A stretch of DNA of 64,000 bases from a virus (lineage: Duplodnaviria > Heunggongvirae > Uroviricota > Caudoviricetes), in the IMG/VR virus record IMGVR_UViG_2861069343_000001. One strand, given 5' to 3'. Position 1 is the first letter of the stretch. The number at the start of each line of letters is the position of its first letter. Shown here one piece after another: positions 13,641-19,931 of this stretch. The translations under genes and the position numbers were made by a program. The notes under the pieces are model-generated. The model did no database searches and had not been told where the DNA came from. It worked only from the letters and a program-made list of their open reading frames with translations.

Positions 13641-14546
13641 ATGTTTAAGCACTGGAAAAACATTACTATTTATAAACTTTCTCGTGAGGCGGATCTGACC
13701 GACTTAGAAGATAAAAAGAAAATGATCCTTTTCACGCCATGCGGTAGTCAGGATATGGCCAAGTTCGGTTTTGTATCTCCATTTGGTGATAATTCCGAAG
13801 TTATCGCTATGCATGGAAATGGTTTTATCCTTGTTGAAGCAAAGCGCGAAACAAAAATTCTTCCCCCGCCGGTTATCCAGCGAGCTATTCAAGAAAAAAT
13901 TGAAAAACTCGAGCAAGAACAAGCGCGTAAACTGAAGAAAACAGAGAAGGACTCCCTGAAAGACGAAGTTCTGCATTCTCTTCTGCCACGGGCTTTTTCA
14001 AAGTTTTCTGTTATCCAGGCGATCTACGACGGTTCAACTAAACGTATCTATATCAATGCCAGCGCGCGGCAGGCAGAGGATATGCTCGCGCTTATGCGTA
14101 AATCTCTGGGTTCTCTTCCTGTTGTTCCCCTAAGTGTTGAAAATCCCATTGAATTAACGCTGACCGACTGGGTACGTGATGGTAGTGCTCCACAGGGATT
14201 TCAAATGGGGGATGCGGCAGAACTTAAGGCAGTGCTTGAGGATGGCGGTATTGCCCGAGTGAAAAAGCAGGACTTGGGAAGTGATGAAATATCCACACAC
14301 CTGGAAGCTGGCAAGCTCGTCACTAAGTTGGCACTCGACTGGCAGAACCGCATTAAATTTACACTGGACCATAACTTCAGCCTTACCAGCGTCAAATTTG
14401 CGGATGAATTGCTTGAGCAGAACTCTGATATTGATAGTGAAGATGTTGCGCAGCGACTGGACGCAGATTTCTTCCTGTTGACCAGTGAAATTTCGTGCCT
14501 GGTTGATGCTCTGGTAAATGCCCTTGGTGGAGAGGCTAAGCAGTGA
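13641..14546 (+). CDS. hrdC: RdgC-like recombination-associated protein
   Basis: Translation from [16 protein letters not shown] is near-colinear with E. coli RdgC ([54 protein letters not shown]); the ATG at 13641 is preferred over the longer track ORF. Confidence 0.85.
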
Positions 14547-17500
14547 AAGAGCTGTGCTATGGATCTGTTTGCAGTGGAATTGAAGCCGCGAGTATTGCCT
14601 GGGAACCGTTGGGTATGCGTCCGGTGTGGTTTGCTGAAATCGAGTCTTTTCCATCGGCCGTTCTTGCGCTCCGCTGGCCCCATGTCGCCAACCTTGGCGA
14701 CATGACAAAACTTGCCAAAAAAGTCTTGGCTGGGGAAATCGAATCCCCTGACGTGCTCGTCGGGGGAACACCATGTTTTACCGCGGGGCATATGGTTCTT
14801 TGTAAAAATGGCTATAAACCAATAGAAGATGTTTGCCCTGGCGATTACGTAGTCAGTCATCTCGGGCGGTTACAACAAGTAAAAAGAGTTGGTTCAAAAA
14901 TAGCTAATACGGGGTTACTTAATGCCGTTGGGCAGCCTTTAGATATAAGAACAACCAATGACCATCCCTTCCTGGCTGTTCGGTGGAAAGCCCAAAACAC
15001 CCGGAAAAATGGCACATATTTTAAGAGAGAGTTGTTGTCTGAACCGGAATGGCGAGCAGCATGTGATATGCCGGGGTATCAATGGTGCGCTCTAACTAAT
15101 TTCAATATTGCATCTCCAGATATTTGTTCTCGGTTCTTGTCTGAAGAACAGGCTATGTATCTTGCGGGCGCTTATGTTGGCGATGGATATATTAGGAGAT
15201 GGAGAGGTAAATCTAAGAAGGCGGTTGTTTTTGGCATAAATTGCCAGAAATTGAGAAAGTTTCATTGCCGCATACCAGAAAACATATTTTCCGTGGCAAG
15301 CGAAATCCGAGGGAGCATCAAAGTAACCTTGAATGATACGTGTTATGCCAATTGGCTTAATGAACATTTTGGCGAGTTAAGCCATGCTAAGCGTATCCCT
15401 GCATGGGTGATGTCGCATCCATTGCGTCATGTGTTTTTACAAGGCTATCTTGATACTGATGGGACACCAAGTGGTAAAGCGGGATTTAGAATTAATAGTG
15501 TTAGTCCTGCGCTTGCTTGGGGCGTTGCGGGGTTGTCACAGACTTGTGGTTATGTTTCTTCGGTCAGCTTTATTGAAGTTGAGCCCAAAAAAGTGATCGA
15601 GGATCGCGTGGTAAATCAACGGAATTATTATCAGGTAACAATCTGCCCGCAGAAATTGTCACGTAAATCAAGATTGGCTCATGGAATGCTTTTACGAACA
15701 GTCAAAGAGTTTAAATCGGTAGGCCTAGATACTGTATACAACATAGAAGTCGAAGGTGATCATTCCTATATCCTCAATGGTGCGGTGGTCCATAACTGTC
15801 AGGCATTCAGTATCGCGGGATTACGTGGTGGGCTTGATGATGAGCGTGGCGCGCTAACTTTAAAGTATGTGGAGCTTGCAAATGCAATTGACGACAAACG
15901 GGCTGAGTCATTTCTCAAACCAGCCGTTATCGTCTGGGAAAATGTCCCAGGAGTCTTGTCATCGGCAGATAACGCCTTCGGATGTTTCCTTGCCGGATTG
16001 GCTGGAGAAGATGCGCCATTTGAACCAGGTGATCGACCTGAATCAGGAAAAAGTAACGCGTTCTGGCGGTGGGATGGCAAAACCGGTTGCCATGCTCCAA
16101 AGTGGCCACAGTGTGGTTGTATTTATGGACCGCAGCGAAAGGTGGCCTGGAGAATCCTTGATGCCCAATACTTCGGAGTGGCACAACGACGCCGACGCGT
16201 GTTTGTTGTCGCAAGTGCTCGAACAGACCTCGATCCCGCAACGGTACTTTTTGAGTTCGAAGGCGTGCGCCGGAATATTGCGCCGAGCAGAGGCGAGGGG
16301 AAGGAAACTACCAGATATACTTCAAACATCGCTATCAGATCTTGCGATGATACAAACATAGTTGCCATGGCACATGGGCAAGGAGGGGCTGAGATAAAAA
16401 CCGATAATTCGGCACCAACTTTAACATGTAACCATGAAGCACCAATTGTATTTCTCGGCGACGGTAGAATACGCCGTCTTACCCCTGTCGAATGTGAGAG
16501 ACTTCAAGGTTTTCCTGATGGGCATACGTTGATCCCTACGGAAAAGCGTAAAAAAGTTAATTCAGATGAACTGGCATATCTGCACAATCACTATCCAGAT
16601 TTAAGCGAAGAAGAGGCCGCAATGCTTGCAGCTGACGGACCGCGTTACAAAGCGATCGGCAATAGTATGGCGATACCAGTAATGCGCTGGATTGGCGAGC
16701 GGATAACCAAGGCTGCATGTCGGCAGAATGAAGGGCGTGAAACAAAAGAGCGAAAAGTTAAACCAGCGGCAGAATTCGAACGGTCCATATTCAAATGGGC
16801 TGGTGGAAAATTTGGTGTTCTGGAACAAATCTTTCGCTATTTGCCAGAAGGGAAGCGCCTGATTGAACCTTTCGTCGGTGGTGGAGCTGTCTTCATGAAT
16901 GCCGGATACCAGGAAAATCTGCTAAATGATGTGAATGCTGACCTGATTAACTTTTACAAGACTCTGCAACGCGAGGCGCATTCACTTATCACTCTGGCAC
17001 ATCGTTTCTTCTTGGACTACAACACCCAGGAGGGATTCCTGGCAGTACGGAATGCGTTTAACAAACAAGTCTATGATGATTTACATCGCGCAGCGGCGTT
17101 TTTGTTCCTGAACCGACATTGTTTTAATGGATTGACGCGCTACAACCAGGCCGGTGAGTTCAATGTCGGTTATGGGAAGTATAAAACTCCGTATTTCCCA
17201 TTACAGGAAATGGAAGCCTTCCTCGGTGCGGAAGGGCGGTCTGAGTTTGTATGCGGTGATTTTGCAGCGGTGATTGAAGGTGCCGGAGAAGGAGATGTCA
17301 TCTTTTGCGATCCGCCGTATGAACCGCTCCCCAATACAGAGGGGTTCACGAACTATTCCGGTCATGACTTTAAGTTTGAAGAGCAAAAACGCCTGGTGTC
17401 TCTGTTGACGGATGCCCATCGCCGAGGTGCAAAGGTTCTCATTACTAACAGTGGCGCGCCAAACATCAGAGAGCTTTATCAGGACAGTGGCTTCAGAGTG

Positions 17501-17584
17501 GAACCTCTTTTTGCCAGACGTTCTGTGTCTTGTAAGGGGGACACTCGTGGTGTTGCTCATGACGTTATAGCTATATTGCTCTAA
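14543..17584 (+). CDS. dmt: bifunctional DNA methyltransferase (N-terminal C5-cytosine, C-terminal Dam-like N6-adenine), intein-containing
   Basis: C5-MTase motifs: GGTP|...|CQAFSIAG (PCQ split by the intein) and VIVWENVPG (ENV); C-terminal half aligns by eye to E. coli Dam ([29 protein letters not shown]). Confidence 0.85.
14774..15796 (+). other. intein with LAGLIDADG homing-endonuclease domain inside dmt
   Basis: Starts with Cys (CFTAGHMVL), has T-x-x-H block (TTNDHPF), two LAGLIDADG-type motifs ([22 protein letters not shown]), ends ...NGAVVHN followed by Cys; excising it restores [12 protein letters not shown]. Confidence 0.75.
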
Positions 17585-18256: not shown

Positions 18257-18332
18257 GATGGTGTAGCTCAGCGGTTAGAGCGGTTGACTGTTAATCAACG
18301 GGTCGATGGTTCAAATCCATCCACCATCGCCA
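18257..18332 (+). tRNA. trnA: tRNA-Asn (anticodon GTT)
   Basis: Manual cloverleaf: 7-bp acceptor gatggtg/caccatc, D arm gctc/gagc, anticodon loop ctGTTaa, T arm gatggTTCAAATccatc, encoded CCA. Confidence 0.85.
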
Positions 18333-18334
18333 AT

Positions 18335-18410
18335 GCCGGTTTAGCTCAGTTGGTAGAGCGCCTGCCTTGTAAGCAGGATGTCAGCGGTTCGAGTCCGTTA
18401 ACCGGCACCA
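18335..18410 (+). tRNA. trnT: tRNA-Thr (anticodon TGT)
   Basis: Manual cloverleaf: acceptor gccggtt/aaccggc, anticodon loop ctTGTaa, T loop TTCGAGT, encoded CCA. Confidence 0.85.
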
Positions 18411-19855: not shown

Positions 19856-19931
19856 GGCCCTTTAGCTCAGTGGTTAGAGCTGGCGACTCATAATCGCACG
19901 GTCACCGGTTCAAGTCCGGTAGGGGCCACCA
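19856..19931 (+). tRNA. trnI: tRNA with CAT anticodon (Ile-lysidine type or Met)
   Basis: Manual cloverleaf: acceptor ggccctt/aggggcc (one G-U), anticodon loop ctCATaa, T loop TTCAAGT, encoded CCA. Confidence 0.8.

Follow-up and report, generated by a model that had tools for sequence, protein, structure and literature searches.

The dmt locus and its insert

The window analysed here, a stretch of 64,000 nucleotides (nt) filed as IMG/VR virus record IMGVR_UViG_2861069343_000001, comes from a P1-like phage-plasmid. Its DNA methyltransferase gene, dmt, is a single open reading frame (ORF) of 1013 codons with a GTG start (14543-17584; this and the parts of dmt described below lie on the plus strand). 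The N-extein of 77 codons (14543-14773) contains the motif I region of a cytosine C5-methyltransferase (C5-MTase) and ends in VLVGGTP. It is followed by a stop-free insert of 341 codons (14774-15796) that begins with CFTAGHMVL and ends with NGAVVHN. The C-extein (15797-17581) starts with CQAFSIAG and contains the remaining C5-MTase with its ENV, QRRRR, and GNS motifs, a variable target-recognition segment, and a Dam-type domain. The opposite strand of the insert is full of stops, and its guanine plus cytosine (GC) content is 43.1%, compared with 49.6% for the exteins. The 4 kb surrounding the insert match E. coli plasmids such as NZ_CP029103.1 at 100% identity and the phages P1, P7, and RCS47 at 97-98%. 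An earlier note on this DNA had proposed an intein of 341 codons between GGTP and CQAFSIAG in Dmt, and translation bears out these borders to the base.

The insert is an exact addition to the gene. Dmt was aligned with P7 Dam (672 residues), reference P1 Dmt (754 residues), the Dmt of the P1vir isolate OP279344 (1013 residues), and RCS47 Dmt (1095 residues). In P7 Dam and reference P1 Dmt, the same 341 residues are missing, precisely from P77 up to the Cys of the PCQ motif. At the DNA level, alignment with P1 and P7 gives a clean indel of 1023 nt at the same place. The filled allele reads GGA ACA CCA|TGT TTT...CAT AAC|TGT CAG, while empty alleles read GGT ACG CCT|TGT CAG. All 19 alleles that were retrieved have either no insert at all or one of exactly 1023 nt. 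The segment is not a conserved domain of all homologues, since it is absent from P1, P7, and 361 plasmids with an otherwise collinear Dmt.

Removal of the insert restores a continuous enzyme. Splicing in silico yields a product of 672 residues. PF00145 matches it with 128 contiguous bits, one stretch spanning motifs I to VI, as against 107 bits spread over four fragments in the precursor. The spliced junction GGTPCQAFS aligns with GFPCQAFSISG of M.HhaI, and the first residue after the insert (Cys+1) takes the position of M.HhaI Cys81, the established catalytic residue. The expectation that excision would recreate C5-MTase motif IV is thus confirmed by both the profile and the alignment. The latter also shows motifs I, IV (PCQ), VI (ENV), VIII (QRR), and X (GNS) all present and in order, and TIGR00675 is above its cut-off for the C5 domain. 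By calculation, the precursor has a mass of 112.9 kDa, which splicing would divide into a Dmt of 74.5 kDa and an insert of 38.3 kDa (isoelectric point 9.3). The mass of the insert is close to the shift of about 37 kDa that had been estimated before.

Splicing and endonuclease domains

Profile searches point to both parts expected of an endonuclease-bearing intein. Pfam LAGLIDADG_3 (PF14528) matches residues 221-284 of the insert with 35 bits (curated cut-off 22.5), NCBIfam intein_Cterm (TIGR01443) matches with 26-29 bits (cut-off 15.6), and Hint_2 passes its cut-off narrowly; Pfam Intein_splicing does not reach its own. Together with the fold matches, these scores put the resemblance well outside chance. 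An AlphaFold2 model, built from an alignment with ten homologues, has beta-rich termini, a predicted local distance difference test score of 90.9, and a predicted template-modelling score of 0.88. When this model was compared with solved structures by Foldseek, the top 16 matches were all endonuclease-bearing inteins (E = 3e-17 to 5e-9). They comprise PI-SceI (3e-17), the Tli and Pho VMA inteins, PI-PfuI, and PI-PkoII, and the matches to PI-SceI and the VMA inteins are full-length. Mini-inteins and the Prp8 intein are also matched, and free-standing LAGLIDADG enzymes, including I-SceI, I-DmoI, I-AniI, and I-OnuI, follow lower down. The fold search was required to settle the intein fold, because a sequence-only search of the PDB gave weak partial matches: the C-terminus of the Spl DnaX mini-intein and the endonuclease domain of PI-PkoII.

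All catalytic positions for splicing and endonuclease activity carry the consensus residue. Conservation was counted across 136 diverged representatives of the family described below, and these positions are 90-100% conserved among them. The N-terminal nucleophile of block A, Cys1 (14774-14776), is Cys in 136/136. Block B contains the TxxH sequence T61-N-D-H64 (14954-14965) within TTNDHPF, with Thr in 132 and His in all 136 representatives. Blocks F and G (15731-15796) contribute D329 (127/136), H340 (123/136), and the terminal N341 (136/136). This is the segment that scores above the TIGR01443 cut-off and can be aligned with the C-terminal end of the Spl DnaX mini-intein. The Cys+1 codon (15797-15799; Cys in 132/136) encodes both the predicted splice-junction nucleophile and the catalytic Cys of motif IV.

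The endonuclease domain has two LAGLIDADG motifs. The first, LAGAYVGDG (residues 130-138; 15161-15187), has invariant glycines at G132 and G138 (both 136/136) and the acidic residue D137 (127/136). The second, LQGYLDTDG (residues 222-230; 15437-15463), has the acidic residue D229 (134/136) and lies within the PF14528 match. In the model, helices at residues 124-137 and 218-229 correspond to the first and second motif, and each is followed by strands, in keeping with the alpha-beta-beta-alpha-beta-beta-alpha core of such enzymes. Lys206 (15389-15391; Lys in 134/136) is a candidate active-site residue, a role we infer by analogy with other LAGLIDADG enzymes.

By its architecture and modelled fold, the insert at 14774-15796 is a class 1 intein of the canonical type, in which a double-motif LAGLIDADG endonuclease is nested. 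The splicing blocks and the two LAGLIDADG motifs named in the earlier note are all present. A bacterial intein-like (BIL) domain was considered and rejected: the insert has an endonuclease, interrupts the catalytic motif of a conserved enzyme, and is followed by a conserved +1 Cys. The solved BIL domain 2lwy gives a weak partial match only.

A family of inteins at motif IV of C5-methyltransferases

Searching 1.84 billion cluster representatives gave 181 matches at E ≤1e-30, and 136 of these are full-length. The N-terminal junction is P|C in 125 of the 136, the C-terminal junction is HN|CQ in 106, and an ENV motif lies just downstream in 114. These same-site junctions define one large intein lineage dedicated to motif IV of C5-MTases. 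Relatives with 47-57% identity are found in other Dmt-like C5-MTases from metagenomes, Mannheimia, and Rodentibacter. Those with about 30% identity are found in quite different C5-MTases, all directly before the catalytic Cys. Phages with a related intein at the same site were identified by tblastn. They are Mannheimia phage vB_MhS_587AP2 (GGTP|CFTAGH...VVHN|CQ), E. coli jumbo phage A4 (GGFP|CFPAGT...VVHN|CQAWSVAGK), and Lactobacillus phage Nyseid (FGFP|CSPAGT...IVHN|CQDISVAGK).

At this locus of the Mannheimia phage (L020:1264-3584), the intein is 48% identical to the dmt intein. The MTase reading frame is broken directly behind it, and what is left of the MTase region contains an ORF for a free-standing HNH homing endonuclease. 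The gene looks multiply invaded and decaying. Immediately upstream is a gene of 906 nt, equal in length to hrdC.

Endonuclease-bearing class 1 inteins at catalytic motifs are textbook knowledge. In PI-SceI (the Sce VMA1 intein), the archaeal VMA inteins, PI-PfuI, and PI-PkoII, a HINT domain is likewise split by a double-motif LAGLIDADG domain. Cys1, TxxH, the terminal HN, and Cys+1 are common to the dmt intein and the PI-SceI/VMA type, and the latter are also inserted at the catalytic motif of a conserved enzyme. However, sequence identity between them is 11-17%, and the dmt intein is shorter (341 residues versus 454-537). Judging from this smaller size, it probably lacks the extra DNA-recognition region of PI-SceI. 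The hosts differ as well, being a phage-plasmid DNA methyltransferase rather than a V-ATPase, ribonucleotide reductase, or polymerase.

Close counterparts are the motif-IV inteins of vB_MhS_587AP2, jumbo phage A4 and its relatives, Nyseid, and Propionibacterium phage B22. They are homologous to the dmt intein (27-57% identity) and share its site, ...P|C(F/S)xAG...HN|CQ..., with the catalytic Cys at +1. The P1-group intein differs from them in that its host is a bifunctional C5 and Dam fusion on a plasmid prophage. It is also polymorphic within one close population, where empty and filled alleles occur side by side. Inteins of phage methylases have been described mostly in mycobacteriophage N6/N4 enzymes (PMC5050341, PMC9957025), and a 2025 survey of actinobacteriophages lists a C-5 methylase among the intein hosts (bioRxiv 10.1101/2025.01.02.630785). 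The mycobacteriophage DNMT-1/2 inteins likewise carry LAGLIDADG endonucleases, reside in phage methylases, and have a patchy distribution with evidence of horizontal transfer (PMC5050341, PMC9957025). Their sequence matches to the dmt intein are weak (about 27% identity), their hosts are N6/N4 methylases (PF01555), and the site differs, as in phage Doug (...MHV|CLARGS...VVKN|CPLQFD). No description of an intein in P1, P7, RCS47, punaviruses, or P1-like phage-plasmids was found in the literature. The dmt intein of the P1 group is thus apparently undescribed so far, although the kind of element is already known.

Distribution among P1-like elements

The intein is present in only part of the P1-like population. 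With a 500-nt query representing the empty site, PLSDB contains 361 plasmids with an uninterrupted dmt site and about 130 with the split pattern (26% filled). The insert DNA itself is found in 132 PLSDB plasmid records, full length in 125 of them and always with at least 98.7% identity. The hosts are E. coli, E. albertii, E. fergusonii, Salmonella, and Shigella. Among 5426 complete E. coli genomes, 151 carry the intein. Five of the 152 copies in these genomes are on records labelled as chromosomes, e.g., NZ_CP007393.1:2210227-2211249. These could be integrated P1-like elements or could reflect assembly or labelling issues.

Three deposited phages, RCS47, vB_EcoM-Ro157c2YLVW, and OP279344, carry the intein. 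The earlier note had allowed that P1 dmt might lack the intein. This is correct for reference P1, and for P7 as well, but does not extend to RCS47 or to OP279344 (L003:1275-2297). OP279344 is the sequence of a laboratory P1vir stock from an Argonaute study, and its dmt is of the short type with the intein. Laboratory P1 lineages therefore differ at dmt, and an intein-bearing P1 is already in routine laboratory use.

The intein occurs on at least two target-recognition backgrounds, short and long. Dmt without the intein has 672, 754, or 807 residues, and these lengths are set by alternative target-recognition segments independently of the intein. This second polymorphism, in addition to the intein, accounts for the four Dmt lengths of 672, 754, 1013, and 1095 residues. 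The protein is named Dmt, Dam-family methyltransferase, or DNA cytosine methyltransferase in the records, and fragments are named 'Hint domain-containing protein'. None of the deposited records examined annotates an intein.

Mobile elements have shortened the locus in some plasmids of this group. In E. fergusonii pTB91P2 (L005:4001-4829), IS1 cuts the intein after its first 76 nt. Decay of the intein was rejected as the explanation of this 76-nt remnant, which is an IS1-mediated truncation. In pLH50-c-C (L019:5454-7023), dmt has lost its 3' end to a tnpA-tnpB element of the IS200/IS605 type.

Maintenance of the intein and its flanking sequences

The intein ORF is intact, with no stops or frameshifts, in all nine filled alleles sampled. 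These alleles have 27 variable sites, 13 synonymous and 14 non-synonymous. The resulting ratio of non-synonymous to synonymous polymorphism (pN/pS) is about 0.31, a sign of purifying selection.

The exteins next to the intein differ between filled and empty alleles. The flanks of the nine filled alleles were compared with those of ten empty alleles and, over a 60-mer at the junction, with those of three more. Relative to the common empty allele, the filled ones diverge by 17-25% in the final 24 nt of the N-extein and by 6-10% from +1 to +130. Beyond these tracts the figure drops to 2% or less, or 3% or less outside the upstream tract. Nearly all of the differences are synonymous. The upstream intein-linked tract (14750-14773) has synonymous third-position differences and ends with A at 14773 (CCA). 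This position, -1, is a fixed difference (CCA versus CCT) between the 9 filled and the 13 empty alleles. CCA was found only next to the intein, and none of 155 empty sites of the common L006 type in PLSDB carries it. L006-type alleles were also considered as precise deletions of the intein, and this was rejected as the simple explanation since 0/155 retain the linked A.

Filled alleles have two upstream haplotypes, hapA and hapB. In hapB, present in 46 plasmids, each of the six codons next to the intein is changed at its third position, and some of these changes are found in no empty allele sampled. In most alleles, the downstream intein-linked tract covers 15797-15926, with differences at +24, 48, 51, 66, 106, 114, 117, 126, and 127. 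Its end-points are nested. In the L028 type (about nine plasmids, e.g., NZ_CP016549.1) the tract reaches +24 at most, in RCS47 it stops somewhere from +117 to +126, and in most alleles it runs to about +130. This pattern is consistent with what homing with variable co-conversion tracts would leave, and is not proof of it. Possible donors were sought by comparing the hapA and hapB flank codons with the Mannheimia phage and with a metagenomic contig (48% identity). The comparison was uninformative, as both use their own codons.

The suggestion that the insert is a mobile selfish element gains support from four sides: about 130 filled against 361 empty sites, the lower GC content, the co-conversion-like flanks, and same-site inteins in unrelated phage C5-MTases.

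Proposed mechanism and alternative explanations

The account that we favour, and consider probable as a whole, is that a class 1 homing intein sits directly before the catalytic Cys of Dmt, splices itself out, and spreads by homing with co-conversion. The 112.9-kDa precursor would self-splice into the 74.5-kDa Dmt, with the GGTPCQAFS loop restored, and the free 38.3-kDa intein. Since Cys+1 is the equivalent of M.HhaI Cys81, the C5 domain is expected to be inactive before splicing. The dependence of methyltransferase activity on splicing, raised in the earlier note, would thus concern C5 methylation only; the Dam domain forms a C-terminal module of its own and may be active without splicing. 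In a cell with both a filled and an empty P1-like genome, the free intein is predicted to cut the empty dmt at or near GGTACGCCT|TGTCAGGC; the candidate cleavage target is the empty junction ...GTCGGGGGTACGCCT|TGTCAGGCATTC.... When the break is mended with the filled copy as template, the intein would be carried into the empty gene along with a variable length of flanking extein.

Several points weigh against this account. Splicing, cleavage, and homing of the dmt intein are predictions from sequence and model. Among the profiles, Hint_2 passes marginally (28.7 versus 28.4 bits), and Pfam Intein_splicing stays below its cut-off on the insert (22.4 versus 35.8 bits). The functional cost of the insert is uncertain, because the deposited annotation of Dmt gives C5 activity only as 'perhaps'. 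About 74% of the alleles are still empty. The fixed A at -1 points to one origin within the P1 group. Common L006-type empty alleles (158 records) already bear most of the intein-linked flank, so part of the linked tract may be the recipient's own haplotype. Furthermore, the empty mosaic allele L024 (CP099272.1) has an upstream flank of the intein-associated type (GGA ACA CCT) and a downstream flank of the P1 type. Its crossover lies between -4 and +24, at the insertion point of the intein. Given the L006-type flank and empty mosaics such as L024, a single ancestral insertion followed by ordinary recombination is possible, and such an ancient insertion could also give rise to linked flanks with nested end-points; the flank pattern is thus no proof of an active endonuclease.

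The intein could accordingly be competent for splicing but no longer mobile. Its endonuclease would be inactive or without accessible targets, and an old insertion would have been passed on by vertical descent and by general homologous recombination, a frequent process in P1-like plasmids. The strict linkage of A at -1 with the intein fits such a single origin, and the L024 crossover right at the site and the majority of empty alleles agree with it. In addition, the identity of the intein across alleles (98.7-100%) is not above that of the surrounding genes. However, the acidic LAGLIDADG residues and the Lys are intact and conserved across the family to the same degree as the splicing residues, and variation in the intein is under purifying selection. 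Immobility also fits poorly with the spike of divergence, which is concentrated in about 25 nt before and 130 nt after the junction, and with the variety of flanks beside the intein, at least three lengths downstream and two haplotypes upstream. We regard this explanation as unlikely.

A further role can be imagined for an active intein. The endonuclease might cut the dmt of intein-less P1-like genomes that come into the cell, and so serve as a device of exclusion or competition between phage-plasmids that are otherwise incompatible. In addition or instead, conditional splicing, for example through a Cys1-Cys+1 disulfide, might switch on C5 methylation post-translationally and independently of Dam. 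Either role is speculative, and we consider it quite unlikely that this describes the element.

It is very improbable that the insert is dead, i.e., that it fails to splice, inactivates a dispensable C5 domain, and is tolerated since only the Dam domain matters to the phage. The only essential role reported for P1 dmt is to supply Dam methylation at pac sites when the host is dam- (PMC12707154), which would allow such a loss, and the 'perhaps' in the annotation of C5 activity leans the same way. So do an odd Gly-to-Trp change in the VWGTPCQ of reference P1 and the related Mannheimia MTases that are frameshifted after the intein. Against this, Cys1, T61, H64, D329, H340, N341, and Cys+1 are all present, and the exteins retain all of the C5-MTase motifs. 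A decaying insert would also be expected to gather lesions, whereas the nine alleles are free of them and show the low pN/pS given above. Finally, the view that the insert is no intein, but an intron of group I or II, an insertion sequence, or an extra domain kept in the mature MTase, hardly merits any credence: nothing beyond the presence of an insertion speaks for these, the insert is in frame and stop-free with protein-level homology throughout, and the intron and transposon readings are excluded by a search of the region against Rfam (both strands, E up to 1) that matched no family and by the absence of terminal inverted repeats and target-site duplications at the insert beyond the two Cys codons.

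P1 has long been a workhorse in the genetics of E. coli, and phage-plasmids of its type are today monitored because they carry resistance genes. Roughly one in four P1-like plasmids has an apparently intact homing intein in dmt, as does at least one P1vir stock used in the laboratory, and the annotations examined do not flag it. The phage is genetically tractable, and its coexisting filled and empty alleles are about 97-99% identical apart from the insert. The locus is therefore a convenient natural system in which to measure how the intein homes, how long the co-converted tracts are, and what fitness cost a plasmid prophage pays for it. The same system could show whether the long-uncertain C5 activity of Dmt is real and splicing-dependent. 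The present analysis documents a large intein lineage specific to the catalytic Cys of C5-MTases; it reveals no new kind of mechanism.

Other features of the dmt region

The GTG start of dmt overlaps the TGA stop of the upstream hrdC/rdgC gene (GTGA, 14543-14546), which suggests that the two genes are translationally coupled. Within the coding region of the N-extein, about 70 nt upstream of the intein, there is an inverted repeat whose 11-nt arms match perfectly and stand 2 nt apart (CATGTCGCCAA / TTGGCGACATG, 14681-14704).

Further into the gene, the target-recognition region (16289-16470) has at least three alternative variable segments between conserved C5-MTase motifs. These suggest that P1-like elements differ in C5 target specificity. 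The Dam-type N6-adenine MTase domain (about 16796-17497; precursor residues 752-985) is matched by PF02086 and TIGR00571. The Dmt of reference P1 (AF234172, c1-100 mod749::IS5; L002:1263-1265) reads VWGTPCQ, while all other alleles examined read VGGTPCQ. This Gly-to-Trp change, three residues before the catalytic Cys, might affect C5 activity of the reference strain. Downstream of dmt, at 18257-18410 and 19856-19931, lie genes for tRNA-Asn(GTT), tRNA-Thr(TGT), and tRNA-Met(CAT), and the Asn and Thr tRNA genes are found at the corresponding place in P1 and P7 too.

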